From NCBI GenBank assembly GCA_039801485.1, contig JBDRUR010000001.1, positions 1 through 56,520 of the forward strand: a DNA stretch of 56,520 nt, in the 5' to 3' direction. Below, piece by piece: positions 18,467-34,077 of this stretch (position 1 is its first letter; the number at the start of each line of letters is the position of its first letter). The stretch is from a candidate division WOR-3 bacterium (GTDB lineage Bacteria; Hydrothermota; Tepidihabitantia; Tepidihabitantales; CAIPLT01). The notes under the pieces were generated by a model that searched no databases, was not told the DNA's origin, and saw only the letters and a program-made list of their open reading frames with translations. The position numbers and the translations under genes are program-made.

Positions 18467-19633
18467 ATGTATTTTTTATTAATTATTTTACTCGTCTTTA
18501 TGATTGCTGGTATTGTAGAATATCAGCATCATCTCTGTAATGTAAGAAAAATTCCGATCCGTATTCAAGTCAACGGGACCCGGGGTAAATCATCAGTAAC
18601 TAGATTGATTGCTGGCGGACTTAGAGCCGGAGGCATCAAAGTCATTGCCAAAACTACCGGAACCAAACCGAGATTTATCATTAATGATAAAGAAGAAATA
18701 CCAATAAAGAGATTAGGCAAACCGAATATCGGCGAAGAAAAAATGATTTTTCGGCAAGCAGTCAAATATCAACCGCAGGCAATCGTGATGGAATGTATGG
18801 CATTAGTACCGGAATATCAGTGGACCGAAGCAAATCGTTTGGTCAAATCAACCCATTGTGTTATTACTAATGCGCGCGCTGACCACTTAGATGTCATGGG
18901 ACCAACAGTTATTGATGTTGCTAAAGCATTATCCAATACCATCACCAAGAATGCCAAGTTCTTTACTGCCGAACAAAAATATTTAGATATTTTTAAAGAC
19001 CGGGCTAAAAAATTAAATACCGAGGTATTTGTCTCAAATCCAAATTCAGTTAGTGATGAAGATATGAAGGGTTTCAGATATGTTGAACACAAGGAAAATG
19101 TTGCATTAGCACTTTTAGTCTGCGAAAGCTTGGGCGTTGATAAAAAGACCGCTTTGCTAGGGATGTATCAAACAACACCTGACCCCGGTGTTATGCGGAT
19201 ATATCAAATTAAAGACCAAGGTAAACAGTTCCGGTTAGTTAATACTTTGGCAGCTAACGACCCGGATTCAATTCTTTTGCTATGGGAACAAGTTAAGAAT
19301 TTAGCCAATGAAAAAATTGTTCTGGTTAATTGTCGCGACGACCGCGCTGACCGTTCAATTCAATTAGGCGAACTTACGGCTAAAAAATTTGAGGCTGATT
19401 GGTATCTTGCTACTGGGTTCTTAACCATGCCCTATATTCGCAAAGCAACCAGCCTTGGTATTCCTAAACATAAAATTGTTGATTTGGGTGAAAAGACACC
19501 AGAGCAAATATATCAAAAAGTTTTAAGTCTTGTTAAGTCTGATGCCTTGGTATTTGCCACGGGTAATACCGTAGGGTTTGGTGAAACAATCATTGCTTAT
19601 TTTGCCAGTAAAGGAGGAGAAATTGATTATTGA
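18467..19633 (+). CDS. pgsB: Poly-gamma-glutamate synthase, ATP-dependent amide ligase subunit PgsB/CapB
   Basis: N-terminal TM followed by the Mur-ligase P-loop VNGTRGKSSVTRL. AKTTGT, MECMALVPEYQ, ARADHLDVMGPT, TPDPGVMRIY, LAANDPDS and NCRDDRADRS track the B. subtilis PgsB sequence block by block, from memory. Confidence 0.9.
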   Translation: MYFLLIILLVFMIAGIVEYQHHLCNVRKIPIRIQVNGTRGKSSVTRLIAGGLRAGGIKVIAKTTGTKPRFIINDKEEIPIKRLGKPNIGEEKMIFRQAVKYQPQAIVMECMALVPEYQWTEANRLVKSTHCVITNARADHLDVMGPTVIDVAKALSNTITKNAKFFTAEQKYLDIFKDRAKKLNTEVFVSNPNSVSDEDMKGFRYVEHKENVALALLVCESLGVDKKTALLGMYQTTPDPGVMRIYQIKDQGKQFRLVNTLAANDPDSILLLWEQVKNLANEKIVLVNCRDDRADRSIQLGELTAKKFEADWYLATGFLTMPYIRKATSLGIPKHKIVDLGEKTPEQIYQKVLSLVKSDALVFATGNTVGFGETIIAYFASKGGEIDY

Positions 19634-20072
19634 AACAATTGGCTTAGGCATGTTAGCCAGTTTATTTTTAACTGAGACAATTGGTTTGGCTGCTGGTGGC
19701 ATTGTTGTGCCTGGTTATATTGCGCTCTATTTACAACAACCACTAAGGGTTATCGGCACTGTTCTGGTTGGATTAATCGTTTATCTATTAATAAAATTTT
19801 TAGGACGATTTATGCTTTTATATGGTCGTCGATTGTTAGTTATCGGTGTTTTATTGGGCTATTTAATTGGCTATCTTATCCGTCTTTTTCCGCCAATTAC
19901 CTTTACTGATTTCAAGTTAGATGTTAATGTTATTGGTTATGTAATTCCTGGTTTATTGGCATATTGGATGAATCGTCAAGGTATTATTGAAACGATTACG
20001 ACGATGACAATTGCGGCAATCTTAACCCGATTAATCATTATTATTATATCAAATGGCAGTATTACAATTTAA
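19623..20072 (+). CDS. pgsC: Poly-gamma-glutamate synthase membrane subunit PgsC/CapC
   Basis: AAGGIVVPGYIALYL, LYGRR and VIPGLLAYW match PgsC (AGLVVPGYLGLVF, LYGRRKF, IVPGLIANT). I take TTG 19623 as start, 4 nt after GGAGGA and overlapping the pgsB stop. The track's 19578 start lies inside pgsB. Confidence 0.85.
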   Translation: MIIETIGLGMLASLFLTETIGLAAGGIVVPGYIALYLQQPLRVIGTVLVGLIVYLLIKFLGRFMLLYGRRLLVIGVLLGYLIGYLIRLFPPITFTDFKLDVNVIGYVIPGLLAYWMNRQGIIETITTMTIAAILTRLIIIIISNGSITI

Positions 20073-20075
20073 TTT

Positions 20076-21164
20076 ATGAAAAAAAGAATCGATAAAGTTG
20101 GGAGAAGTGTTTTAATAATTTTTACAATAATTACGATTTTGCTTTTTATAGTTGAGTTGAATACGAAACGAGATGTAAAAATTCATTATTACGAAGAAAA
20201 GATTAAAGCTGGTCAGATCTTTCAGGAAATGATGAGAAGAGTAAAAATTGAAAAAGAAAAAAGAGGAATTGTTATTGACCTGATTAATGACCCAAATCAG
20301 ACCGGTATCATTGGGCAACAATATACCCCAATAACATTTCAACGGAGTGATTTATCCGCAAGCTTAACTTCAACTAATCCGAATTTTGTTGCAGTTTTTA
20401 TTGAGATGTTTAAAAAATTAAAACTCAAAAGCGGTGATACAATCGCCGTTGGTTTGGACGGTTCTTTTCCGGCAGTAAATATGGCATTATATTCAGCATT
20501 ACGAGTAATGGATATCAAGCCGATAATAATCACCAATGTTAGTTCAGCAATGTGGGGTGCCAACGACCCAAATTTCACCTGGCTTGACATTGAACATATT
20601 CTATATCAGGACAAACTTACCAGTCATAAGTCAGTGGCAGCATCACTTGGTGGCGAAGATGATTTAGGTCGGGGGTTCAGTCCGCAGGCACGACAATTCT
20701 TGCTTGATGCCGTCAGTCGTAATCAAGTTGAGCTCATCTCATCAGAAAACCTGGAGACTAATATCAAAAAGCATTTGGACGTCTATTTTAAGTGCAAGAA
20801 GATAAAGGCATTTATTAATGTTGGTAAATCAGTTGCCAATATCGGTGAAAATCAATCGTCTTTTATTAATGGCATTATCCGTCGATTGCCATCAAAATAT
20901 AATCGGCAGTCGGTAATTGCTGAGATGTTGAGTAAAAATATCCCAGTAATAAATATCACTGATGTCAACAAAATCGCTATGCGTTATGGTTTACCAATCG
21001 CACCGGTGCCATTGCCACCATTAGGTAAAGGAAAATTATTTATTGAAAAGAGGTTTTCACCAATAGTTGCGTTGATATTTGCTATCATAATTTTGATATG
21101 TTTGTTTTTTGTAATCAGATATGATTTAGAATATTATCTATCGAAAAAAAAGGAGAACAAATGA
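20076..21164 (+). CDS. Bitopic membrane protein in the PgsA/CapA position but not CapA-like; probably the alternative 'poly-gamma-glutamate system protein'
   Basis: 362 aa with TM segments at both ends (VLIIFTIITILLFIV and IVALIFAIIILICLFFVI). It starts 3 nt after pgsC. I see none of the metallophosphatase-type CapA motifs (GNFE, NNH, GHHPH). Confidence 0.5.
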   Translation: MKKRIDKVGRSVLIIFTIITILLFIVELNTKRDVKIHYYEEKIKAGQIFQEMMRRVKIEKEKRGIVIDLINDPNQTGIIGQQYTPITFQRSDLSASLTSTNPNFVAVFIEMFKKLKLKSGDTIAVGLDGSFPAVNMALYSALRVMDIKPIIITNVSSAMWGANDPNFTWLDIEHILYQDKLTSHKSVAASLGGEDDLGRGFSPQARQFLLDAVSRNQVELISSENLETNIKKHLDVYFKCKKIKAFINVGKSVANIGENQSSFINGIIRRLPSKYNRQSVIAEMLSKNIPVINITDVNKIAMRYGLPIAPVPLPPLGKGKLFIEKRFSPIVALIFAIIILICLFFVIRYDLEYYLSKKKENK

Positions 21165-22039
21165 AAATTGACCGGATAAAAGTTTTATTATCATTGCTGT
21201 TAATGACAGCTATATTAGTCGCTCAAGAACAAAAAATCGAAGTAAAGAAAATAACACCACGAACAGTTATCAGTGTCGTCAAACGAGTTGAACAAGAGTA
21301 TTATTTATTAACAAAAAATCAACCAGTGGAATTTTCGGTCACAGGTCCAACAACAGTTAGAGTTTTCACTCGTTTGCTATGGCACGATGATATGCAGGAT
21401 AAACAGAACTACAAACTTATCGTCAAGTATGGCGAAGAAGAAAAAATAGTATCATTGGAATCCGAAGTTTCCAAATCAGCCTGGGGAAATAAAAAGCAGT
21501 ATTATGGCAAATGGCGGTCATTTTATCTCGATGTTCCAAAAGGTACGGCGGATTATCAAATAAGACTTTTAGAAGCAAAATCTGACACGGTCGCAATTCG
21601 GTTTAGTTTGGAAAAACCGAAAGAATATAAGAAAAAGGCACCGGAACCACCTTATACTGAATTGCAATTTGTCGAAAAAGAGAAAATAACTTCATATTAT
21701 GAGGTTAAATTAAATAAACCAATAAAAATCAAAGTTGAAGGTCCGGTGCGTTTAAAAGCAACCTGTCGATTAAATTACGATTATACCTTAGAAGGCAAGC
21801 AGAATTTTACGGTTAGCGCCGTTGTTAGTAATAAAGAATGGCAATCAAAAACATTCCGGGTCTCCAAATCTGAAACTGGCCTATATAAGAATGCTCAACA
21901 ATATCTACCATCGACGCCTGTAAACTTCTATCTCAATATCCCACCGGGCAACTATTTAATTGAGTTTTATTTAAAGAATACCTTAGCCCAAAGTGCTGGT
22001 ATTAGTTTTTATACCAAACCACTCGAAGACTATGAATAA
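21161..22039 (+). CDS. Secreted protein made of two tandem homologous ~110-aa domains, no recognised family
   Basis: Signal peptide LLSLLLMTAILVAQEQ. Repeat 1 is YYLLTKNQPVEFSVTGP...KQNYKL...VSKS...FYLDVPKGTADYQI...IRFS. Repeat 2 is YYEVKLNKPIKIKVEGP...KQNFTV...VSKS...FYLNIPPGNYLI...ISFY. ATGA overlap with the upstream gene. Confidence 0.6.
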   Translation: MKIDRIKVLLSLLLMTAILVAQEQKIEVKKITPRTVISVVKRVEQEYYLLTKNQPVEFSVTGPTTVRVFTRLLWHDDMQDKQNYKLIVKYGEEEKIVSLESEVSKSAWGNKKQYYGKWRSFYLDVPKGTADYQIRLLEAKSDTVAIRFSLEKPKEYKKKAPEPPYTELQFVEKEKITSYYEVKLNKPIKIKVEGPVRLKATCRLNYDYTLEGKQNFTVSAVVSNKEWQSKTFRVSKSETGLYKNAQQYLPSTPVNFYLNIPPGNYLIEFYLKNTLAQSAGISFYTKPLEDYE

Positions 22040-23063
22040 CTGGACAAAAGCTACATTGATAATTTCTTTACTCTTTGTAACTTTACTTAATGCTGAAGTG
22101 GTAAAGTTTACTCGAAAGATAAGTTTCGGCGTTCAGATTAATACCATCTATGATAATAATATCTATTTATATTCACCTGATTATATCGCTGATTTCAGAG
22201 AACAAATTCGCGCTTATCGATTCCCAATCAATACCTATGACGATTTTATTACCAATATTAATCTATCACTACGAATACCTCATGCTAAATCGTCAAACAT
22301 TTATCTTTATTATAAACAATATTTGTATGCGATGAATGCTGAAAAATCCTATCAAATAGTTTCGATGACAATTAGTCAAAACATTGCTAACAATCTGAAG
22401 TCGAAAATAGGGTACTTATTCTTACCGCAATATCTAATTCGTTATTATCGAGACCCATTGGGTTCAGCAACTCGTTATATTGCATGCGCCTTTGCCGAAC
22501 ATCTTTTTACTTTTGGTTTTGAGTACAATCTATCTAATATCAAATTAAATCCATTTGTCCGCTATGAAATTGACAACTATAAAAAGAACTTTAATTTTTA
22601 TGATGGCGAAGCCTTCCGTTTCGGGCTCTCATTAATGGTTCCAATAAAATTTATTAATCTTACTGCCCAAGCAGAACGAAAGTTAAATAATGCTATGGGA
22701 CCAGTGCCTGATATTTCTTATAACCAGAATGCTTATCAATTGACCTTAACCAGCCCATTTTATCAAAAAAAATTGAGTTTTAATATTAGTGGTAGTTTTC
22801 AAACTCGTATCTACACAACTGAAAACGCATTTGAAATTGACCCATACCACAAAGACCGTAACGATAAAATATTTTCATTCGGGACTGGACTCAATTATCG
22901 ATTATCAAAAAAAATCCAAATGAGCCTTGAGTATGAAAAAGAAAAACGGAGTGTCAACACGCCGTATAACATCAATATTGAAGAAATAAAAGATTATCAA
23001 GCTGAACGCATTTCACTTGGAATAAGATTGAATCCAAATTTTGTTATACAACAAGGAGAATAA
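22032..23063 (+). CDS. Predicted outer-membrane beta-barrel protein, no recognised family
   Basis: ATG 22032 overlaps the previous stop by 8 nt. Signal peptide ATLIISLLFVTLLNAEV. Many short amphipathic strands rich in Y/F/N/G (FGFEYNLS, FRFGLSLMV, FSFGTGLNYRLS, MSLEYEK, ISLGIRLNPNF). Confidence 0.45.
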   Translation: MNNWTKATLIISLLFVTLLNAEVVKFTRKISFGVQINTIYDNNIYLYSPDYIADFREQIRAYRFPINTYDDFITNINLSLRIPHAKSSNIYLYYKQYLYAMNAEKSYQIVSMTISQNIANNLKSKIGYLFLPQYLIRYYRDPLGSATRYIACAFAEHLFTFGFEYNLSNIKLNPFVRYEIDNYKKNFNFYDGEAFRFGLSLMVPIKFINLTAQAERKLNNAMGPVPDISYNQNAYQLTLTSPFYQKKLSFNISGSFQTRIYTTENAFEIDPYHKDRNDKIFSFGTGLNYRLSKKIQMSLEYEKEKRSVNTPYNINIEEIKDYQAERISLGIRLNPNFVIQQGE

Positions 23064-23067
23064 AATT

Positions 23068-24063
23068 ATGATGAAAAAATTTAAAAATATCTGGAAAGAC
23101 ATTTTGCCTTATGTGAGTTTATTCTTAATAATTTTTCTGATATCAAATTGTGGAAAACCGATTGAGAAAATAGCACAATTTAAAATTGTTGGTCAATGCC
23201 CTAATCCTGGATATGCCCAGTCTATTTGGGTTGATACCATCAATAATAAACATTATGCCTTTTTGGCATCGGGTCAAGCAGGACTTGTTATCTATAATAT
23301 TGATAATCCTGAGTCAACTTATATTGTTAGTCAGTGGTTAGATTCAATAAATTCTTGTTGGGATGTTACGACATTGCGTGGTTATGCATATTTAGCTTAT
23401 GGCAAAAGAGAATTAATTGTTCTGAATGCAAGAATCATTGACAGTTTGCAATATGTTGACGAATATAATTGGCCATTTCCGGGTAATTCGCGTTCGATAT
23501 TTATTCAAGACACCAGCTATATTTTCGTAGGTGCTCTTGACCGATTACTGGTTTCTGCAGTCGCAACACCGGCATATCCCGACGAATATAACCCACCATC
23601 AAATGTTCGGGGTATATTTATTGTTGATTCTTTTGCTTACATTGCCTCCGAGCAACTTGGCATTTATATAATGAATGTGTTAACAACCCCAAGAAGGATT
23701 GTTAATCTCTGTAATACGCCAAGTAATGCCCGGGGAGTCTTTGCTGATAAGCATTATTGTTATGTTGCTGATGGCAGAAATGGATTAGTTATTATTGATG
23801 TTAGCAATCCTTATCAACCGTCGATTGTATCGCAACTATCATTATCGGGTTATGCTAATAAACCATTTGTAAAAGATACTTTGGCTTATGTTGCTTGTGG
23901 CGAAGCCGGATTGGCAATTGTTAATATTAAAGATATAACAAATCCTATTCTTGTTGAATATGTAAAAACTTCTTATGCCAAAAGTGTTTATGTTACAAAA
24001 GACAATTATATTTATCTTGCTGACCGGGATTTAGGATTAGTTGTCATAAAACAGGAGGACTGA
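23068..24063 (+). CDS. LVIVD-repeat beta-propeller lipoprotein
   Basis: AAGGAGA SD before ATGATG at 23068. Lipobox FLISNC. Repeats: GLVIYNIDNPES, ELIVLNA, GIYIMNV, GLVIIDVSNPYQP, GLAIVNIKDITNP, GLVVIKQ. Confidence 0.7.
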   Translation: MMKKFKNIWKDILPYVSLFLIIFLISNCGKPIEKIAQFKIVGQCPNPGYAQSIWVDTINNKHYAFLASGQAGLVIYNIDNPESTYIVSQWLDSINSCWDVTTLRGYAYLAYGKRELIVLNARIIDSLQYVDEYNWPFPGNSRSIFIQDTSYIFVGALDRLLVSAVATPAYPDEYNPPSNVRGIFIVDSFAYIASEQLGIYIMNVLTTPRRIVNLCNTPSNARGVFADKHYCYVADGRNGLVIIDVSNPYQPSIVSQLSLSGYANKPFVKDTLAYVACGEAGLAIVNIKDITNPILVEYVKTSYAKSVYVTKDNYIYLADRDLGLVVIKQED

Positions 24064-27000
24064 TGATTAAAAAAACGCATAACTCCCACCTGCTATTAGC
24101 TAAGATTTATCTTGTCGTAATCTTACTTTCTTTAGTTTCTCTTTTTGCAGAGACAATGAATTATCCTCTCGGCTATTATACTGCTTTCGAGATTAAAAGC
24201 AAAACAAGTAATCAAATCGACATTGCCGTTAATACTCCGGTAAATATTACAAATGATGTCATCGAAAAGATTATTGACGAATTCAATTTTGTTGACTTAC
24301 CTTATATTTATCAATCAAGATTAATCACAGTACCGGAAAACAGTGATGTTCAGATAATGATAAAACACTATGACTCGCTAATTATTCCCTATAATCAATC
24401 AATAAATCTTGCTCGCGATGAATTTATTGATACCTTGCCACTGGTCTTTTTGGGCAAAGCTGGAATTATGCGAGATTTCAAAGTCGCGCCGTTAAATGTT
24501 CGGCAGTACTTTTTTGATAAATCTAATCGAAATATCATTTGTTATAATAACTTTGATATTGAAATTAAGTTTCCCGAGTCACCCACGCAACTGAGTAATC
24601 TAATCAATATATCAAATGATTGGCTTAGTTTCTATGAAAAATCAATCTTAAACTTTGATAAAAGCGCATTTGGCTCATTAAATTTAGGATTACCCCAAGG
24701 TTATTTAATAATTGTTGCCGACAATTTATATAATAATATCTTGCCGTTAGCGCGATGGAAAAATCTCAAAGGTTGGACAGTAACCGTGAAATTAAAATCA
24801 GAAGTTGGGTCCTCTTGGACCGAAATAAGAAATTATATCAAACAGGCATATTTAACTTGGTCTCCCAAGATTGAATATGTGCTATTAGTTGGCGTTGGTG
24901 GTTCGAGTTCGTCCAATTATATCCCTGCGGTGCCGAGTTATGCGACTTATGGTGACCATCTATATAGTTGCGTTGACGGCGATGATTTATATCCTGATTT
25001 GTTCATTGGCCGATTACCTGCTGCCACAACTTCTGAATTAGCGGTAATGGTTGCCAAAATTATTGGCTATGAACAAACTCCTTATTTAACCGATACAATG
25101 TGGTTTCGACGAGCATTAATGGTTGGAACCAGTTATCAACAAAATTCAACGGTGCCGGTGTGGACCGCGTTAGCTTTAAAACGAAACATAAGGAATTTAT
25201 TATTACAACACGATTATATTACAGTCGATACGGTATTTTATCCACCAACTGCCTCAGGTGTTGGTAGTATTGATACCATTATCAATCGCGGTGTTACATT
25301 TGTTAACGGTCGTGGTTGGGGAAATCGCGAAGGGTGGAACTATCCTTATTTTAAAATTCAAGAAGTCATCAACCTAAATAATGGGTGGAAATTACCGATA
25401 GTAACTAGTTTTTATTGTGCAACTGGAAATTACACTGCATATCCTTCTCGTTGTTTTGGTGAAGCCTGGCTATATGCTGGTTCACCGACCAATCCAAAGG
25501 GCGCGGTTGCATTTTATGGACCAATCTATGCTAATACTTCAACGCGGTTCAATAATTGCCAGGATTTGGCAATTTATTGGGGAATATTCAAAGAAAATAT
25601 ATTTAATTGCGGTCCGGCAATGTTTCGAGGAAAGATAGAAATGCTTAACAATTTTCCGTTATTGTGTGATACTTTAGCACTAAATACTCATGTTAATACT
25701 TATAATCTATTGGGAGACCCTTCATTAGATATGTGGGCTGGAGTTGTTCCAACACAACTTATTGTTAGTTACCCATCAGAGATTCCGGTCGGCAGTTCAA
25801 CGATTACAATTACGGTTACTAACACCAGCTCCCAACGAATAGCGAATGCTCTTGTTTCGTTATATAAACAAAATGAAATTAAACAATCGGCTTTTACTGA
25901 TAATTTAGGTAATGTGACATTTAATTTTACAACTAACACGCCAGATACGCTATTTGTAACAGTTACAAAACATAATTATATTCCTCATCTCGGTCATATT
26001 CGAGTTGTATCGCAACCGGTTTATGTTGGTTTCTATTCATATTCTGGCAACACAATTGCTGGCCAACAGGCTAATCTGATGATATCTTTGAAAAATTACG
26101 GAACAACACAATCGGCTAATAATACTATTGCCACGCTCAGAACTACAGATAATCATATTACGATGATTGACTCGATAAAAAATTATGGTGATATTGCCCC
26201 GGGACAAATTGTCACTAACGGTCCTTTTCAATTCGCTATTGCCCCGAATTGCACCAATAATCATGTGGTTAACTTTCAATTGATAGTAAATAGTGGCAGC
26301 AATAATTGGCAGGCAGGTTTTTCGGTTTTAGTTAGTGCTACTGAATTAGCATATCGTAGTCACATTTTTAATGACGGCAACAATAATGTGTTAGAGCCCG
26401 GGGAGACCAGCAATCTGATAATTAAAATCTTTAATTACGGGTCTCAAAATATTACTAATGTTTTAGGAATTTTACGTGCAACTAACCCTTATGCCATTAG
26501 TGTTGTTGATTCGTTGGGCTATTTTGGGAACATCAATGTCGGTGATACAGTTCAAAATAGTACTGATTATTTTGTCGTATCGGCATCGCCGTTAATTGGC
26601 ATTGGCAGAAAATTCTACTTACAATTATTACTCCGGAGTGGTAATTATCAAAGATTAATTGAGTTTCCAATTATCATCGGTCAAATTTCCAGCACATCAC
26701 CATTAGGACCTGATGGTTACGGTTATTGGGCATATGATAATTCTGATATTGGTTATAGCGAATGCCCGACTTACGATTGGTATGAAATTGACCCGAATTT
26801 TGGTGGTAGTGGCACACGAATATCACTTGGCGATGATGGAATAAGAACAATAAATTTACCTTTTGTTTTTAGATATTATGGCAATAATTACACAAAAATT
26901 TCAATCTGTTCTAATGGTTATGCTGCCTTAGATTCTACCACTGTTATTGACCCGTATAATTGGATGATTCCTTCGCCACTTGGTCCTCGGAATATGTTAG

Positions 27001-27719
27001 CAATTATGTGGGATGATTTTCATCCAGATACAATGAATGCATCTGGCGTCTATTATTATTATGATAATACTAATCACCGTTTTATCATCGAATGGAGTCG
27101 GGTTCATCATGTTCATGGATATCGTAATCCCAATATTGCTGAATTGCAAACCTTCCAAATTTTGCTATTAAATCCTGCTTATTATCCAACGCGCACTGGT
27201 GATGGCCCGATAATTTTCCAATATCATACGGTAGTCAATGACGACTCTTTTCCAACCGATTGTCATAATTATGCCACGGTAGGTATCGAGAACTATTCAC
27301 AAGATATCGGCATTGAATATACATTTGCTAATCGCTATCCGCCGTCGGCGGCAATATTACAGAATGGACGAGCAATTAAATTCACAACCAATGCTCCGGA
27401 TACCTTTACGAGCATTATAGAAATTCCGGATATAAAAATCCAGACGCAAAATCTTAAATTCACAGCAATACCTAATCCAATGCACAACCAAACAATATTA
27501 GAGTATAATTTGCCTTTTGATGCCGAAGTGAACTTAGTAATCTATGATATTACTGGGAAAATTATCAAGGCATTGGTGAATTCACAAAAAAAACATTGGG
27601 GATATCATAAAGTGCGGTGGGATAAAAATACAATTAGGTCCGGTATCTATTTTGCATTGTTGACAATTAAACAGCACAATTTTATAATAACTAAGCAGAT
27701 AAAATTAACAATATTATAA
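24063..27719 (+). CDS. Gingipain-like (peptidase C25 family) multidomain surface protein with T9SS C-terminal sorting domain
   Basis: 1218 aa. C25 core is about aa 213-556: YLIIVADNLYNNILPLARWKNLKGWTV, EYVLLVG, DLYPDLFIGRLPA, LPIVTSFYCATGNY, LLGDPSLDMW. Then two CARDB-like modules, a ~225-aa conserved module (aa 882-1108) and a C-terminal tail AIPNPMHNQTILEYNL...VNLVIYDITGKII...SGIYFALL. TGATG overlap with the upstream gene. Confidence 0.75.
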   Translation: MIKKTHNSHLLLAKIYLVVILLSLVSLFAETMNYPLGYYTAFEIKSKTSNQIDIAVNTPVNITNDVIEKIIDEFNFVDLPYIYQSRLITVPENSDVQIMIKHYDSLIIPYNQSINLARDEFIDTLPLVFLGKAGIMRDFKVAPLNVRQYFFDKSNRNIICYNNFDIEIKFPESPTQLSNLINISNDWLSFYEKSILNFDKSAFGSLNLGLPQGYLIIVADNLYNNILPLARWKNLKGWTVTVKLKSEVGSSWTEIRNYIKQAYLTWSPKIEYVLLVGVGGSSSSNYIPAVPSYATYGDHLYSCVDGDDLYPDLFIGRLPAATTSELAVMVAKIIGYEQTPYLTDTMWFRRALMVGTSYQQNSTVPVWTALALKRNIRNLLLQHDYITVDTVFYPPTASGVGSIDTIINRGVTFVNGRGWGNREGWNYPYFKIQEVINLNNGWKLPIVTSFYCATGNYTAYPSRCFGEAWLYAGSPTNPKGAVAFYGPIYANTSTRFNNCQDLAIYWGIFKENIFNCGPAMFRGKIEMLNNFPLLCDTLALNTHVNTYNLLGDPSLDMWAGVVPTQLIVSYPSEIPVGSSTITITVTNTSSQRIANALVSLYKQNEIKQSAFTDNLGNVTFNFTTNTPDTLFVTVTKHNYIPHLGHIRVVSQPVYVGFYSYSGNTIAGQQANLMISLKNYGTTQSANNTIATLRTTDNHITMIDSIKNYGDIAPGQIVTNGPFQFAIAPNCTNNHVVNFQLIVNSGSNNWQAGFSVLVSATELAYRSHIFNDGNNNVLEPGETSNLIIKIFNYGSQNITNVLGILRATNPYAISVVDSLGYFGNINVGDTVQNSTDYFVVSASPLIGIGRKFYLQLLLRSGNYQRLIEFPIIIGQISSTSPLGPDGYGYWAYDNSDIGYSECPTYDWYEIDPNFGGSGTRISLGDDGIRTINLPFVFRYYGNNYTKISICSNGYAALDSTTVIDPYNWMIPSPLGPRNMLAIMWDDFHPDTMNASGVYYYYDNTNHRFIIEWSRVHHVHGYRNPNIAELQTFQILLLNPAYYPTRTGDGPIIFQYHTVVNDDSFPTDCHNYATVGIENYSQDIGIEYTFANRYPPSAAILQNGRAIKFTTNAPDTFTSIIEIPDIKIQTQNLKFTAIPNPMHNQTILEYNLPFDAEVNLVIYDITGKIIKALVNSQKKHWGYHKVRWDKNTIRSGIYFALLTIKQHNFIITKQIKLTIL

Positions 27720-27724
27720 CAAAA

Positions 27725-29053
27725 ATGGAGCGGATAATGATCAAAAAATATAGCGTTGTTTTATTGATGATTATAACAATTTCGTTGCTTAGCGCACACA
27801 ATTTTCACGGTGCCGCGATGGCACCGAACTCATTAAATGGCTGGGTAGTCACAATTGACACACCGATGGTTTTTTATACACCTGATGGTGGGCATAACTG
27901 GATAAATCGAAGTTTCTTAGATGCTTTATCTTATTTTGATGTCTTCGCCCTTAACTCACAAAAAGTTTGGATTGGCGGTGTGCAGGGATTTATTCATTAT
28001 AGCCCAAATCAAGGGCAAAATTGGTATGTTCAAAGAATGGGATTATCAAAATGGACGGCGCGAATTTTCTTCCTAAACGACACACTTGGTTGGGCGGCAT
28101 GTGGCAGTGCCATCATTGGAAAAACAATTCATGGAAGCGATACCATTTATCAAATGGATTTATGGGAACAAATTAACTTAACAAACCCGCCTTTTTCGGC
28201 TGACTCTTGTGATATTTATGGCATTCACTTCATTAATGAAAATATTGGCTGGTTTTGTGCCGGCCGTTATCCGGAAAATGATACCGAATACATAAAAGGG
28301 CAAGGTTATATTGCTAAAACAACCGATGGTGGTAGTAATCCATTGACTTGGCAACTTCTGCTCAGAGATACAATAAATGACTTTTTTGATATTAAGTTTA
28401 TTGATGCCTTACATGGGATAGTTGTTGGCGGTAATGACCGAACGAACGCTGGTATTGTTTTGAAAACCCAAGATGGTGGTATCACTTGGCAACCAGTAAC
28501 GGTTCCACCTGGAACCAAAATACTTCGAGCATTAGAACTGGTCGGCAATACCCATTTATGGGCAGTTGGTCGCAACGGAACAATTATAAAAAGCACTGAT
28601 GGCGGAAATACCTGGACAGCCCAAATTAGCGGAGTCGACACTACTTTGTTTGATGTTGATTTTGCTGATACCTTGAACGGCTTAATTGCCGGTAATGGTT
28701 ATGTGCTTTATACCCATAATGGGGGAACAACTTGGTACATTGCCAATGTTTATGGGATCGAAGAACCATCAGATAAAATGACAAATTTAAATCAGAATTC
28801 CCTAGTAAGAGTCAATCCAAATCCATTCTACAATCAGATAACTATCAATATTCCTACACAGAATTTGAATGATAATGTCTGTCAAATTTATGACATTATG
28901 GGTAATTTAGTAAGGACAATTAATGTGACAACGCCCTCAATAATTTGGAACGGCAAAGATATGCATAGTCGCTATGTTCCTGCTGGTGTTTATTTTATAA
29001 AAGTTGAATTTGCAAACCGCTCTTCAATCACGCCTGTCATTTTTGTTCGGTGA
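27725..29053 (+). CDS. BNR/Asp-box (Ycf48/sialidase-like) beta-propeller with T9SS C-terminal sorting domain
   Basis: Asp-boxes: TPDGGHNW, SPNQGQNW, TTDGGSNPLTW, TQDGGITW, STDGGNTW, THNGGTTW. Tail VNPNPFYNQITINI...CQIYDIMGNLV...AGVYFIKV. Start may be ATG 27737 (MIKKY). Confidence 0.7.
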   Translation: MERIMIKKYSVVLLMIITISLLSAHNFHGAAMAPNSLNGWVVTIDTPMVFYTPDGGHNWINRSFLDALSYFDVFALNSQKVWIGGVQGFIHYSPNQGQNWYVQRMGLSKWTARIFFLNDTLGWAACGSAIIGKTIHGSDTIYQMDLWEQINLTNPPFSADSCDIYGIHFINENIGWFCAGRYPENDTEYIKGQGYIAKTTDGGSNPLTWQLLLRDTINDFFDIKFIDALHGIVVGGNDRTNAGIVLKTQDGGITWQPVTVPPGTKILRALELVGNTHLWAVGRNGTIIKSTDGGNTWTAQISGVDTTLFDVDFADTLNGLIAGNGYVLYTHNGGTTWYIANVYGIEEPSDKMTNLNQNSLVRVNPNPFYNQITINIPTQNLNDNVCQIYDIMGNLVRTINVTTPSIIWNGKDMHSRYVPAGVYFIKVEFANRSSITPVIFVR

Positions 29054-29062
29054 GGAGTTCTT

Positions 29063-32000
29063 ATGGGACATAAAAATTATAAAGTCCGGAAAATTTTGTA
29101 TACCGTAATGCTTCTTTTATTTATAGGTAATTTATATGCCCGTAGCGGTGCAAAATATCTAATTATTGCTCCAGATAACTTTGTTTCGGCGTTACAACCA
29201 TTAGCTGATTGGAAAACTAAAAAGGGCGTCAAGGCAATGATTGTGCCCTTGTCGGTTACCGGGAATACTGCCAGTCAAATAAAAAACTATATCTTAAACG
29301 CCTACAATACTTGGGAAATAAGGCCGGAATATATTTTACTGGCTGGAGCAAGTTCAGTTTTACCAGCATCGGGTTCTACTGATGATTATTATGCAAATAT
29401 TGATGGTAACTATTTGATTGAACTGAGTATCGGTCGTTTCCCTGGCACAACAGTTGACCAAATCAGTAACATTGTAAATAAAACTTTGCACTATGAGCGA
29501 TATCCATATATTGATGACCCCAGCTGGTTTTTAAAAGGTATGACGATTGTCCGTGAAGATTACTCCGCATATCCGCCAACTTCCTATCCGGATACTTATT
29601 ATTGGGAAAACGCCCGATATTGTATTAATCGCTGGTTAGAAAATGGCTATGTATTAATTGATTCGTTATCAAAAAATCTTGGGCATTCTGCTACCAATAT
29701 TATCAACGGCATTAATAACGGTCGAGCATATGTTATATTTCGGGGACAATCAACGACCAATTGGTGGACACCTTTTCAAGTTGACCCAGCCAGCACTACC
29801 AATGGTTATAAATTACCGGTAATTGTATCTGGCACTTGTGCGACGATGTCACTATCTTCTTCGAATTATTTAGGGAATATGTTTATTAATGCCGGTTCGG
29901 TTGATAATCCCAAAGGTGCGGTGGGATATTTTGCGTCAACAATGACTTCCAGTGGTTCTGGTTTAGCACAACAACGGGGGACAGTTGCAGTTGGTTTTTA
30001 TCAAGCATTATTTGCCGAAGGCATTTATAAAATGGGCGACGCGGCAAAGCGTGCCAAGTTTTTACTTGACTCAATTAGACCACCGGGTTTTTCTCAGGAC
30101 CGTTATAATGAATGGAACCTGTTTGGAGACCCAGAATTAAACCTATGGACAAATGTACCTAAGCGATTGATTGTGACTTACGATTCGGTAATACCACAAT
30201 CACAAACAAACTTATTAGTTACTGTCCGAGGCGAATTTCTTCAGCCGATTGCTAATGCCTTAGTTTGCGTGCGAATGGACACGAGTGTCTATTCGACCGG
30301 TTATACTAATTCAGCAGGGCAGGTACAATTGCCAATTAATTCAAGCGTCACCGGGATAATGGATGTGACTGTCACTGCTCGTAATTGTATTCCATTTGAA
30401 GGAACTGCTAGGTTGGTCCCGGCCAATGTGCCATTTATAAACATCCAGTCAATAGTGTATAATGATTCACTTAGCAATAACGATGGTCAAATTAACCCAG
30501 GCGAGTATATTAATTTAAGAATTTTTTTAAGAAATGATGGCGGTATCAGTGCTGAAAATACAAATGCCACTTTACGCACAACCGACCCCAATATTGTAAT
30601 TATTGATAGTTTCGCTTCATATGGAACAATTGGCATTGGCCAAAGTCTTCCCTCACAAACTTATTATAAATTTTTCGTCAATCCAAATCTTCCTCATAAT
30701 TACCAACTAAACTTTTCTCTCTATATTTATGACCAACAGAACAATTATTGGCTCCGTTCTTTTTCGTTGCCCATTCATGCTGGTAAAATTACTTATTCAA
30801 CTCATTATCTTATCGATACTTTATTTAATGGTAATAACAATTCCTATTTAGGTCCCAATGAAAATGCTTTATTAAAACTAAGATTAGATAATATTGGTAG
30901 TTCGTTAAATGACGTAATCGCCATTCTACATACTGACAATCCTTATCTGATAATAACTGATTCATCAGCTAGTTTTGGTTCAATCGCTGGTGGTGGTAAT
31001 AATATAAACAACACTGATCCATTTATTATTAGTGCCTCGCCCTCTTTGCCCAAGAATTATCAGATAAATTTCAAACTTAGAATCATTGGTCATGGCGACA
31101 CTTATCTTTATACTGATTCATTAACATTTACAGTTACCACTGAACAAGGGACTACTCAAGACCCGACCGGTCCGGATCAATATGGTTATTGGGCTTATGA
31201 TAATACCGATACCTTATCCGGCCGGGCACCGATTTACAATTGGCTGGAAATTGGTCCCGGTGGTCCGGGGACATTAATTGAGGCGATAACAAATCACGAT
31301 GCAGCGGTTACGACAATGCGCTTGCCATTTACTTTCAAATATTATGGTCAGAATTATGATTCGATATCGGTTTGTTCTAATGGTTTTTTGGCAATGGGAC
31401 GGACATCGTATCGCTTTGGTAATAATACTTCAGGGATTCCTGATACCTCGGGCCCAGCAGCAATGATTGCGCCGCTGTGGTGTGATTTAGATCCGAGTCT
31501 TGCCGGTGACATTTATCAATACTATGATGCCGCCAATCATTGCTGGATTGTAGAGTTTTATCAAGTAGCTATCTACAATCAAGCAACTAACAACCAGACT
31601 TTTCAAGTGGTGCTATATGACCCGATATATTATCCAACTACAACTGGTGATGGCCAAATTGAATTCCTCTATCAAACCGTGAATCCGCCTTCATTAAATA
31701 CCGTCGGTATTGAAAATGGATTGCAAACTATCGGTATTCAGTATATGCGAGATAACATCTACCATCAGAACGCAGCAATTTTAACAAGCGGTCGGGCAAT
31801 AAAGTTCACCACGCTACCGCCGATCTCATATCAAAATCCCTGGATCGTTTTAACCAACAGTCAAATCGCCGATTCTTTAAATGGTAATAACAACCATATT
31901 CCGGAGCCGAGTGAGACAATCCAGTTGGTGATTACTTTGCGTAATAACGGTGCGGTGTCCGCGCAGAATGTTTCAGTAATCTTACAAAATCTTGATGGCG

Positions 32001-32518
32001 ACGCGATTGTTTTAGATTCGGTAAAGACTTTTGGTAATATCCCAGTTTCGGGTCAAGTTAATAATCTTAATAATCCTTTTAGTTTTCAAATAGTTGCCAA
32101 TCCGGCTGATACTATTTGTGATTTTTGTCTAATAATTACTGCACAAAACAATAATTACACCAATGTCCAATATTTTTCAATCGGGCTCTGTCATTATGCC
32201 GGGATTGAAACTAGTCCAGATAAAATCAATCTACATCACTTAGCATACAACTTACATCAAAATTTCCCTAATCCTTTCAAAACCAAAACTACTATTCGAT
32301 ATTCGTTACCACTAAAAGAATTTATCTTCTTAAAAATCTACAATATCAACGGTGAGTTGGTTCGCAACCTAATTCAAGACTACCAAGAACCAGGTAATTA
32401 TCAGATAGTTTGGGACCGAAAAGATAACAAAGGGAATGTAGTGGCTAATGGCATATATTTCTACTCACTTTCAACTACGACTCATAAAAAATTCACTCGC
32501 AAGATGCTAATTTATTAA
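29063..32518 (+). CDS. Gingipain-like (peptidase C25 family) multidomain surface protein, paralogue of 24063..27719, with T9SS C-terminal sorting domain
   Basis: 1151 aa. GAGGAG SD. C25 core starts right after the signal peptide: YLIIAPDNFVSALQPLADWKTKKGVKAMIV, EYILLAG, LSIGRFPG, LPVIVSGTCATMS, LFGDPELNLW. Then three CARDB-like modules, the shared conserved module (aa 703-917) and tail NFPNPFKTKTTIRYSL...LKIYNINGELV...NGIYFYSL. Confidence 0.75.
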   Translation: MGHKNYKVRKILYTVMLLLFIGNLYARSGAKYLIIAPDNFVSALQPLADWKTKKGVKAMIVPLSVTGNTASQIKNYILNAYNTWEIRPEYILLAGASSVLPASGSTDDYYANIDGNYLIELSIGRFPGTTVDQISNIVNKTLHYERYPYIDDPSWFLKGMTIVREDYSAYPPTSYPDTYYWENARYCINRWLENGYVLIDSLSKNLGHSATNIINGINNGRAYVIFRGQSTTNWWTPFQVDPASTTNGYKLPVIVSGTCATMSLSSSNYLGNMFINAGSVDNPKGAVGYFASTMTSSGSGLAQQRGTVAVGFYQALFAEGIYKMGDAAKRAKFLLDSIRPPGFSQDRYNEWNLFGDPELNLWTNVPKRLIVTYDSVIPQSQTNLLVTVRGEFLQPIANALVCVRMDTSVYSTGYTNSAGQVQLPINSSVTGIMDVTVTARNCIPFEGTARLVPANVPFINIQSIVYNDSLSNNDGQINPGEYINLRIFLRNDGGISAENTNATLRTTDPNIVIIDSFASYGTIGIGQSLPSQTYYKFFVNPNLPHNYQLNFSLYIYDQQNNYWLRSFSLPIHAGKITYSTHYLIDTLFNGNNNSYLGPNENALLKLRLDNIGSSLNDVIAILHTDNPYLIITDSSASFGSIAGGGNNINNTDPFIISASPSLPKNYQINFKLRIIGHGDTYLYTDSLTFTVTTEQGTTQDPTGPDQYGYWAYDNTDTLSGRAPIYNWLEIGPGGPGTLIEAITNHDAAVTTMRLPFTFKYYGQNYDSISVCSNGFLAMGRTSYRFGNNTSGIPDTSGPAAMIAPLWCDLDPSLAGDIYQYYDAANHCWIVEFYQVAIYNQATNNQTFQVVLYDPIYYPTTTGDGQIEFLYQTVNPPSLNTVGIENGLQTIGIQYMRDNIYHQNAAILTSGRAIKFTTLPPISYQNPWIVLTNSQIADSLNGNNNHIPEPSETIQLVITLRNNGAVSAQNVSVILQNLDGDAIVLDSVKTFGNIPVSGQVNNLNNPFSFQIVANPADTICDFCLIITAQNNNYTNVQYFSIGLCHYAGIETSPDKINLHHLAYNLHQNFPNPFKTKTTIRYSLPLKEFIFLKIYNINGELVRNLIQDYQEPGNYQIVWDRKDNKGNVVANGIYFYSLSTTTHKKFTRKMLIY

Positions 32519-34077
32519 TGCCCTCTAAATATCAAGCATTTATTTTCATCTCCGGTTTTATATTTCTGTTCAGTAATCTGACATTAGCTATTGACTCCCG
32601 TTATCATACCTATGGTGAAGTAATTGACGAAATGCGATTAATTTGGCTGAATCATCAAGACATCACAAAAATTTATACGATTGGTTATACCACGGGATTT
32701 AATTTGCCAATTTTAGCAATGAAAATATCAGATAATCCCGAAATTGACGAAGACGAACCGGCTATCCTATTTAATGGTATTCATCATGCGCCCGAAGTTA
32801 TTGGTCCGGAGATTTGCTTATATTTAATGGCAGATTTAGTAGCCAAATATGGAAACGATTCATTAATTACTGAGATAATTAATTCTTCAGAAATTTGGGT
32901 GGTGCCAATGGTTAACCCGGATGGTAATTATATTGTCCATGCCGGTTTTGATACCTTGTGGCGTAAGAATTGTCGGGATAATAATCAAAATGGCATATGG
33001 GATTTCGGCGACGGTGTTGATTTGAATCGTAATTACGACTTTTTATGGAGTATGGGCGGCACATCGACGCCCTCAGACCGTAATTATCGGGGGCCTTATC
33101 CTTTCTCTGAAAACGAAACCCAGGCAATTCGGGATTTAGCTTTACGAGAAAAATTTGTCTTCGATATCTGTTATCATAGTAGCAAGGAATCCTGGGAAGG
33201 CGAAGCAGTTTATTATCCCTGGCGTTGGGGGAATCCTTTCGCCCCTGACCATAATCACATTCGACCAATTGCCGAAAGTATTGCGCTAAGTATTGTTAAT
33301 GATGCCGGCACCGGTACCTATTATGCCACCTATGGTCGTGCTACCGAAGGCGGTTTGACGCGTAATTGGCTTTACTACGCAATCGGCACATTTGCATTTA
33401 CTATCGAAGTGAGTCATGGTTATTTTCCTCCAGGTTACCGCGTTGATTCCATCTGCCAAAGAAACTTACCCGGCGCTTACTATCTGTTACGAAGAATGCA
33501 CGGTAGTCAAATCACCGGGCATATTACTGATTCAATAACTGGTGAACCAATGGTTGCTGAAGTGAGAATCCTTCAGGCATACGCGCCACCAGAGACTATT
33601 GCTCCACGCACATCTGACCCGATATTTGGACGATATTTCCGAATTTTATCACCAGGAAATTACACGGTTCAAGTCATCAAACCCGGTTATGATACCGTGA
33701 CGATTCCGAATGTAAATGTTACTTTTGGTCAGCCAACAGTATTAGATATAAAAATGCAACCCAGTCGAGCAATGGAGAAGAAAAACCAAGTATTAAATAT
33801 GTCCTATGATGACTGTCAAGTGGCGTCAACAATCGGAACAAATTTCGCCAATATTGTGATTTCACTAAAAAAACAATCTGATGTCACAATCAAAATTTAT
33901 ACCAGTGATGGCCGATTAATTAAAGATTTTGCAACCCACTCCTATCAGCCGGGCAAGCATATTCTCTGGTGGCATTTTGATGACCAAAATGGTAATAAAG
34001 TTAACAATGGTATCTACTTTATAAAAATAATTACACCTTCTTTTGAGAAAATAAAGAAAATTGTTTTAATAGATTAA
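32518..34077 (+). CDS. M14-family zinc carboxypeptidase with carboxypeptidase-regulatory-like domain and T9SS C-terminal sorting domain
   Basis: GIHHAPE (HxxE zinc site), NPDG, WRKNCRD, DLNRNY, CYHSS, FTIEVS (catalytic Glu). Then GHITDSITGEPMVAEVRI (CarbopepD_reg-like). Tail VTIKIYTSDGRLI...NGIYFIKI. TAATG overlap with the upstream gene. Confidence 0.8.
   Translation: MPSKYQAFIFISGFIFLFSNLTLAIDSRYHTYGEVIDEMRLIWLNHQDITKIYTIGYTTGFNLPILAMKISDNPEIDEDEPAILFNGIHHAPEVIGPEICLYLMADLVAKYGNDSLITEIINSSEIWVVPMVNPDGNYIVHAGFDTLWRKNCRDNNQNGIWDFGDGVDLNRNYDFLWSMGGTSTPSDRNYRGPYPFSENETQAIRDLALREKFVFDICYHSSKESWEGEAVYYPWRWGNPFAPDHNHIRPIAESIALSIVNDAGTGTYYATYGRATEGGLTRNWLYYAIGTFAFTIEVSHGYFPPGYRVDSICQRNLPGAYYLLRRMHGSQITGHITDSITGEPMVAEVRILQAYAPPETIAPRTSDPIFGRYFRILSPGNYTVQVIKPGYDTVTIPNVNVTFGQPTVLDIKMQPSRAMEKKNQVLNMSYDDCQVASTIGTNFANIVISLKKQSDVTIKIYTSDGRLIKDFATHSYQPGKHILWWHFDDQNGNKVNNGIYFIKIITPSFEKIKKIVLID

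Follow-up and report, generated by a model that had tools for sequence, protein, structure and literature searches.

Two gingipain-fold proteins of a WOR-3 poly-gamma-glutamate operon have lost the catalytic histidine and retain the cysteine

We analyzed a 56,520-nucleotide stretch of DNA (the window) from an uncultured candidate division WOR-3 bacterium (assembly GCA_039801485.1, contig JBDRUR010000001.1, positions 1 to 56,520). Two genes on its forward strand encode proteins, here called A and B, that carry a domain of peptidase family C25 (MEROPS; clan CD), the family of the gingipains RgpB and Kgp of Porphyromonas gingivalis. In both proteins, the position of the catalytic His is taken by another residue, while the counterpart of the catalytic Cys is kept. 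The two open reading frames (ORFs), their domains and the residues discussed below are the following, with amino acids abbreviated as aa and the type IX secretion system as T9SS.

24063..27719, + strand: protein A ORF, 1218 aa; Pfam PF01364 at 1e-58 (aa 214-556), PF03785 and PF18962
24153..24662, + strand: pro-domain-like N-terminal domain of A, about aa 31-200, identified with Foldseek
24702..25730, + strand: C25 (gingipain-fold) domain of A, covering PF01364 profile positions 1-373 of 374
25182..25184, + strand: second Arg of A, R374, aligned with the RgpB Asn168 column in helix alpha1
25311..25322, + strand: former G-H-G turn of A, R417-G418-W419-G420, with W419 (25317..25319) on the catalytic His position
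25416..25418, + strand: C452 of A (TGT), counterpart of the RgpB catalytic Cys244 by alignment to RgpB
27471..27698, + strand: T9SS type A C-terminal sorting domain of A, PF18962 at aa 1137-1212
29063..32518, + strand: protein B ORF, 1151 aa; Pfam PF01364 at 3e-46 (aa 32-361), PF13860 and PF18962
29156..30145, + strand: C25 (gingipain-fold) domain of B, from PF01364 and Foldseek
29741..29752, + strand: former G-H-G turn of B, R227-G228-Q229-S230, with Q229 (29747..29749) on the catalytic His position
29837..29839, + strand: C259 of B, catalytic Cys counterpart by alignment to RgpB, inside the clade motif S-x-T-C-x-T

Protein A comprises a signal peptide, a gingipain-type pro-domain, the His-less C25 domain, an immunoglobulin-like (Ig-like) domain, further beta domains and a T9SS type A C-terminal sorting domain. 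Protein B follows the same order without the pro-domain, its C25 domain beginning directly after the signal peptide. Hydrophobic N-termini are visible in both translations and, together with the type A tails (TIGR04183 scores of 25.5 bits for A and 26.9 bits for B, cut-off 23), mark both proteins as T9SS cargo. The C25 assignment is given by PF01364 scores of 199.8 bits (A) and 158.7 bits (B), with a cut-off of 23. The first ~170 residues of mature A resemble the pro-domain chains of RgpB (4ief_C/A/E/G; Foldseek E-values 4.5e-6 to 9e-6, prob 1.00); the Kgp pro-domain 5mun was matched as well, and PF08126 is found in some homologues of A.

AlphaFold models of A and B, built from alignments of 58 and 60 sequences, respectively, show a caspase-like alpha/beta catalytic fold followed by the Ig-like domain. 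The predicted local distance difference test (pLDDT) and predicted template modeling (pTM) scores are 89.5 and 0.91 for A (aa 31-660), and 94.1 and 0.92 for B (aa 26-455). In Foldseek comparisons with RgpB (1cvr), the template modeling (TM) scores lie between 0.85 and 0.89: A matched at E 1.8e-30 with a TM score of 0.89 (normalized to the target), and B at E 7.6e-32 with TM scores of 0.86/0.85. Both models match Kgp as well (4rbm, with TM 0.84/0.80 for B). The likeness to the gingipains (1cvr, 4ief, 4rbm; TM 0.80-0.89) thus spans the full length of PF01364, the caspase-like fold with its Ig-like domain, the Cys after strand beta4, the pro-domain fold of A, and the general plan of a head, adhesin-like domains and a T9SS C-terminal domain.

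In clan CD, the His of the dyad is required for proton transfer. The preliminary description of this DNA, which relied on a manual alignment, had proposed that Trp in A and Gln in B occupy the His position and that the downstream Cys is kept, and both assignments stand. The turn codons had been read correctly (25311..25322, cgt ggt tgg gga, is R417 G418 W419 G420; 29741..29752 is R227 G228 Q229 S230), and the translations contain every one of the strings it quoted, VTFVNGRGWGNREGW, AYVIFRGQSTTNWW, LPIVTSFYCATG and LPVIVSGTCATM. A phmmer search against all PDB sequences returned RgpB (1cvr, 4ief) and Kgp (4rbm) as the only real matches, with E-values of 1e-27 for A and 2e-16 for B. W419 and Q229 align with RgpB His211 and Kgp His444, and C452 and C259 with RgpB Cys244; 'vngrgwg' of A is paired with 'vnytghg' of RgpB and 'anytahg' of Kgp, and 'ifrgq.s' of B with 'nytghgs' and 'nytahgs'. 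In the A model, strand 413-416 leads into R417-G418-W419 and strand 446-449 into F-Y-C452; in the B model, Q229 comes after strand 223-228 and G-T-C259 after strand 253-256. The former His residue therefore stands just past one strand and the Cys just past the following one, which is the placement reported for the clan CD dyad at the ends of adjacent strands (PMC4357240). Of the two residues that characterize C25, A and B lack the His ending strand beta3 and have the Cys ending strand beta4.

A and B would be ordinary His/Cys gingipain-like peptidases if this register were wrong, or if a distant His reached the Cys in three dimensions. The best candidate for such a residue is H299, found in 68% of group A. 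Nevertheless, the phmmer alignments to RgpB and Kgp, a hidden Markov model (HMM) alignment with nine canonical paralogues and the strand positions in the models all agree on the register, and the turn contains no His, so that a register error or a local His shift was rejected. The domain has no conserved His column elsewhere: the maxima are the 68% of H299 in A and 60% in B, on different columns, and none is common to both groups. Among 240 close homologues (the 120 best database matches of each protein), His is on the expected column in none and the Cys is kept in all, a pattern well beyond chance. We regard a hidden His as very improbable.

The residue that replaced the His is not fixed. On this column, the homologues of A have Trp (95), Ile (14) or Asp (11), and those of B have Gln (70), Glu (24), Ser (9), Thr (7), Leu (6), Trp (2), Val (1) or Arg (1). 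A search with B against 1.84 billion representatives (50% clusters) gave 8479 matches, 647 of them below 1e-30; the best 150 include 138 new representatives, and 130 of these lack the His. In a pooled set of 375 His-less sequences, with a mean pairwise identity of 40% and a minimum of 23%, as many as 15 different residues, Leu, Val, Ile and Gly among them, occur on the former His column, while the Cys is retained in 374. The preliminary description had offered several interpretations, including pseudo-proteases, binding modules and enzymes with another general base, perhaps transpeptidases acting on poly-gamma-glutamate (PGA). The loss of the dyad and, as described below, the link to PGA are borne out; the drift of the column over so many residues argues against Trp or Gln as a replacement base. 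Because the position tolerates Leu, Val, Gly or Trp, the best reading of the sequences is that A and B are not classical gingipain-type His/Cys endopeptidases. They remain members of C25 by sequence and fold, qualify as pseudo-peptidases in that at least one catalytic residue, the His, is replaced, and are best filed as non-canonical, probably non-peptidase homologues.

An internal Cys-Gln thioester, as in thioester-domain adhesins, is unlikely as a general feature, as Gln accounts for only 126 of the 375 sequences, though it is the commonest residue at this position in B. Two representatives stand apart. P0244 is the sole His-less representative that both lacks the Arg described below and has Ser on the Cys column ('YQGIG ... 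ISACSPTV'); a Cys one residue earlier means that this may reflect an alignment shift rather than a true loss. P0322, from the T-G-H-G group related to the canonical paralogue on contig C23 (see below), reads Y-T-G-E-G, a separate change of His to Glu without the Arg.

The surroundings of the lost His are strongly constrained. Only 18 of the 376 columns are at least 97% conserved in the pooled set, and an Arg two residues before the former His (R417 in A, R227 in B) is kept in 371 of 375 sequences. This residue, which the preliminary description had overlooked, stands on the RgpB Thr209 column, next to Gly210, which in RgpB contacts the P1 residue (PMC4357240). In the eight full-length canonical paralogues of the genome, the same column reads T, I, Y, A, R, V, V and F. 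A second Arg, R374 in A and R185 in B, lies on the RgpB Asn168 column in helix alpha1, the helix that also bears the S1 residue Asp163; it is present in 118/121 sequences of the A set and 120/124 of the B set, but its conservation drops to about half across the broader B superfamily. Both Arg columns are near-invariant in the close homologues of the two His-less clades and variable in the canonical paralogues. The Gly before the former His (G418/G228) is invariant and the residue after it is Gly, Ala or Ser in most sequences, so the oxyanion-hole positions stay small. Since the Cys, the flanking Gly and the new Arg are among the best conserved residues, the site is not decaying.

Other specificity positions differ from those of the gingipains and between the two groups. 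On the RgpB Glu152 column, A has Tyr (118/121) and B has Asp (D166; 118/124). For the S1 residue Asp163, the loop alignment contains indels; as aligned, the column holds Ala369 in A (95 Ala and 22 Pro among 121) and, by phmmer, D177 in B, which is 82% conserved in the wider clade. Clade A is further marked by T368, T448-S449-x-x-C452 and an invariant T-S-T-R-x-N-N-C loop at the site of the RgpB S1 lid, and clade B by D177, Y180, R227-G228, W234, S-x-T-C-x-T and R305. Group A has a second Cys, C499 (116/121), in a loop beside the active site.

These patterns bear on the view that A and B are inert pseudo-protease scaffolds displaying their downstream domains, with Cys and Arg serving folding or stability (R227 paired with D177, for example, or C452 bonded to C499 in A) and with the PGA link reflecting co-inheritance in certain WOR-3 lineages. 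Such a role would account for the loss of the His, of the Glu152 equivalent and, in A as aligned, of the S1 Asp, for the near-invariance of C499, and for the restriction, within B, of both D177 and R227 to the His-less clade; clan CD offers a precedent in the pseudo-orthocaspases of cyanobacteria (PMC6426788). However, C452 persists in all five group A sequences that lack C499 and the group B domain has no partner Cys. The loops predicted to line the pocket are among the best conserved parts of the proteins, and the pro-domain of A does not have a single invariant residue in the homologue alignment. Together with the joint gain and loss with PgsB described below, which argues for functional coupling, these observations make an inert scaffold unlikely. 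The narrower idea that the Cys is kept solely as half of a disulfide is likewise weakened, as C452 is also found where C499 or C464 is lost and B lacks a partner Cys.

The 1.5 Mb genome has 14 genes with a C25 domain and one fragment; those outside the window lie on contigs C23, C25, C30, C33, C64, C70, C82, C92 and C104. Nine are canonical, with x-H-G and the Cys, and five lack the His: four with R-G-Q or R-G-E and S-G-T-C (B and three paralogues) and one, A, with R-G-W-G. The cell thus has both presumably active and His-less gingipain-like proteins. Two proteins of this genome with an intact G-H-G turn are the following.

Contig C64, 1221..5222, + strand: genuine T9SS sortase PorU, NF033707 at 444.5 bits, with F-F-G-H-G and G-S-C-G-V-G motifs
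Contig C23, 19123..20511, + strand: short canonical C25 protein of 463 aa with T-G-H-G, the nearest His-bearing relative of clade B

The PorU model scored 54.5 bits for A and 61.9 bits for B, against a cut-off of 420, and an identity as PorU was rejected for both. A and B are 32% identical over the C25 domain. In a maximum-likelihood tree, clade A (W/I/D) forms one supported branch; clade B joins the His-bearing C23 protein and then other canonical paralogues, and not A. This topology does not support a single His loss and suggests two separate ones, with long branches leaving the deep order uncertain. In a larger tree, the His state must have changed at least 5-6 times, with rare R-G-H forms scattered among the His-less ones, and inside clade B the residue has changed repeatedly among Q, E, S, T and L. 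The C23 protein, on whose C-terminus no T9SS tail was seen on inspection, may mark the ancestral state behind the His-less B head. The preliminary description had not recognized that A and B belong to different clades, of which only that of A has a pro-domain.

The B-type head is shared by several proteins. The B-type paralogues of this genome measure 538, 769, 918 and 1151 aa and have a common head and T9SS tail with differing middles (CARDB-like and others), to which database relatives of B add MAM, Kelch, NIDO, cleaved-adhesin and dockerin domains. This arrangement of a shared head and tail with varied middles fits cell-surface polymer-binding modules.

The genomic setting points to such a polymer. 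A and B lie in an operon that also contains the following genes, the first three of them assigned with NCBIfam equivalog models.

18467..19633, + strand: pgsB, NCBIfam TIGR04012 at 441 bits (cut-off 222.7)
19578..20072, + strand: pgsC, NCBIfam TIGR04011 at 116.5 bits (cut-off 96.45)
20076..21164, + strand: 'poly-gamma-glutamate system protein', NCBIfam TIGR04332 at 305.4 bits (cut-off 100)
21161..24063, + strand: three genes, for an unknown 292-aa protein, an outer-membrane beta-barrel-like protein and an LVIVD-repeat protein, in the same order in four other genomes
27725..29053, + strand: BNR/Ycf48-like beta-propeller with T9SS sorting domain, between A and B, PF14870 at 7.8e-18 and PF18962; position conserved
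32518..34077, + strand: M14 zinc carboxypeptidase with T9SS sorting domain, final operon gene, PF00246 at 2.9e-51; present in 3/4 other contexts

The gene order is pgsB, pgsC, TIGR04332, unknown, outer-membrane barrel, LVIVD protein, A, BNR propeller, B (in one or two copies) and M14. It recurs on four other contigs, where the A orthologues are 49-72% identical and the flanking genes are different. A is therefore a fixed member of a conserved pgsB-pgsC operon, and both A and B hold a conserved place behind a bona fide pgsB and pgsC, as accessory proteins of the system would. The third gene, the TIGR04332 member, is not a homologue of PgsA/CapA and matches no Pfam family. On one of the other contigs (L017, GCA_049969595.1, 266765-290130) the M14 carboxypeptidase is absent from the operon; on another (L018, SRR9700687) two tandem B-type genes precede it.

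To follow the association more widely, 151 genomes of the phylum were compared, with tables parsed by hand. PgsB was called above its cut-off, A-like matches at E <= 1e-60 and B-type matches at E <= 1e-70, thresholds that admit some other paralogues, such as the canonical C23 gene at 7.5e-75. With these definitions, 50 genomes have an A-like match and PgsB, 11 PgsB only, none an A-like match only, and 90 neither; B-type matches occur in 45 genomes, all PgsB-positive, and each of the closest relatives has three to eleven of them. Of the 49 other genomes with an A-like match, 31 carry pgsB 5-7.5 kb upstream of it, on the same contig and strand, and two more have the genes linked in another order. 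The remainder have pgsB on a different contig, mostly in fragmented assemblies or with matches of <=46% identity. Genus g30 is divided between three genomes with PgsB, A and B and four that lack all of them, and genera g52 and g48 show the same split. As related genomes are not independent, this co-occurrence is strong circumstantial evidence rather than statistical proof. In one related genome (G109, contig C39, 17373..18351), pgsB is split by an in-frame TGA and falls below the cut-off, and may belong to a decaying PGA system.

The loss of the His, the constraint on Cys and Arg, the fold, the operon and the co-occurrence with PgsB are established here. The explanation we favor, tentatively and at a little short of even confidence, is that a Cys/Arg pocket on the gingipain scaffold binds PGA for the co-inherited poly-gamma-glutamate system. 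A and B would be T9SS-secreted surface proteins whose head has the gingipain fold of C25 and clan CD minus the dyad His. Selection would have kept a pocket formed by the old nucleophile Cys, the new Arg (R417/R227) that ends the former His strand, the small residues on either side of the lost His and the Ser/Thr-rich Cys loop; in A, the T-S-T-R-x-N-N-C loop at the S1-lid site may also contribute. This pocket could recognize the polyanionic PGA chain via its alpha-carboxylates, and A and B would hold or organize PGA at the cell surface, with the T9SS tail fixing the protein to the outer membrane and the B-type head serving several surface proteins whose middle domains vary. We infer that Arg and Cys belong to a single pocket, that PGA is the ligand and that the task is tethering rather than turnover, the pocket being placed by model topology and the published clan CD description (PMC4357240).

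Several points weigh against this proposal. Near-complete retention of the Cys across so diverged a set of sequences points to a chemical role more readily than to simple binding. In B, D166 and D177 are kept on the Glu152 and Asp163 columns, so the pocket could still prefer a basic ligand, or R227 may do no more than pair with D177. Surface attachment is already provided by the T9SS tail, and the co-occurrence with PgsB is confounded by shared ancestry. How near R417 and R374 lie to C452, and what shape and charge the pocket has, is deduced from topology alone.

The first of these points would be met if the domains were still enzymes, with the invariant Cys acting as a nucleophile without the His to cut, transfer or covalently anchor PGA, as analogues of CapD or PgdS. 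Proton transfer could then come from the substrate alpha-carboxylate, held by the invariant Arg in a substrate-assisted manner, or from an Arg/Asp/Thr network. The persistence of the Cys beside a drifting ex-His position, the small oxyanion-hole positions, the zymogen-type pro-domain retained by A and the strict co-occurrence with PgsB are consistent with this possibility. So is the operon content: Pfam and NCBIfam scans revealed no CapD/GGT or PgdS homologue among the operon genes scanned, and A and B themselves matched no known PGA hydrolase or transpeptidase family (CapD/GGT, PgdS NlpC/P60, PghP). Cys hydrolases without a His are known elsewhere, as in the nitrilase superfamily (Cys-Glu-Lys) and the isochorismatase-like amidases (Cys-Asp-Lys). 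On the other hand, we know of no clan CD enzyme that works without the His, and no alternative acid/base is common to A and B, the Glu152 column being Tyr in one and Asp in the other. The many B-type matches per genome and their varied middles fit a binding head better, and the M14 carboxypeptidase of the operon could already supply gamma-glutamyl hydrolysis. We consider retained catalysis the leading alternative, though on balance an unlikely one.

A more speculative form of this idea, which we think improbable, is that the His-less head is a His-independent thiol 'polymer sortase' or self-anchoring module. The Arg would place the PGA alpha-carboxylate, the Cys would form a gamma-glutamyl thioester, and the PGA capsule of a diderm bacterium would be covalently tethered or transferred to surface proteins. 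To our knowledge, how diderms retain PGA is not known.

Comparison with known systems further defines how A and B depart from their relatives and from proteins of similar setting. Unlike the gingipains, their genes sit in a PGA operon, and the former His is W, I or D in clade A and Q, E, S, T, L or others in clade B. Unlike RgpB in particular, they have Tyr (A) or Asp (B) for Glu152, Ala in A, as aligned, for the S1 Asp163, and an invariant Arg at the Thr209 position. With PorU (NF033707; 6za2) they share a C25-type fold, a T9SS-dependent surface location and the idea of Cys-dependent transpeptidation; however, their Foldseek similarity to 6za2 is partial (TM 0.17-0.19, normalized to the target).

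The pseudo-orthocaspases likewise have a caspase fold and lost dyad residues and are nevertheless conserved and numerous (PMC6426788). In these proteins, His and Cys are both replaced, by Tyr and Ser (PMC6426788), whereas A and B lose the His only and the Cys is among their most conserved residues. Like CapD (gamma-glutamyltranspeptidase family), PgdS (NlpC/P60) and phage PghP, A and B combine an association with pgsB/pgsC, an extracellular location and possible roles in anchoring, trimming or releasing PGA. They have no sequence or fold kinship with these enzymes, which use an N-terminal Thr, a Cys-His dyad or zinc and none of which belongs to clan CD. SLH, LysM and choline-binding repeats offer a parallel of another kind, one module with many payloads confined to genomes that make the matching polymer, with binding in the present case a prediction. 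Their folds are unrelated to that of the A/B module, a 330-aa ex-protease domain with a conserved thiol. In literature searches, we found no paper on His-less C25 proteins, on C25 proteins of WOR-3, on PGA in WOR-3, or on a PGA operon with T9SS cargo.

Our observations concern a large unstudied family, and the annotation 'C25 peptidase' is probably carried by many genes whose products are not ordinary proteases; public records name the relatives of A and B "C25 family cysteine peptidase". WOR-3 is named after the White Oak River site. In sediments of that river, C25 was reported to make up 41-45% of all signal-peptide-bearing peptidase genes, and these C25 genes were interpreted as Arg-specific endopeptidases (PMC6752024). 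Since 5 of the 14 C25 genes here and 130 of the 138 relatives of B lack the His, protease potential derived from C25 counts may be overestimated.

Two clades that are not sisters in the tree have discarded the His, yet across some 60% sequence divergence both the Cys and an Arg have stayed fixed. Such retention suggests either that a protease pocket has been put to new use in ligand binding, or that clan CD includes a thiol mechanism independent of His. It also makes A and B candidates for PGA handling at a diderm surface, with a conserved operon of 10-11 genes.

Beyond the head domains, the C-terminal halves of A (26700..27400) and B (31170..31810) have a conserved module in common, with the motifs GPDxYGYxAYD, LPFxFxYYG, SxxxNGY and GRAIKFTT. 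This module is almost invariant across the A orthologues, and Pfam NIDO (PF06119) is matched in some relatives of B.

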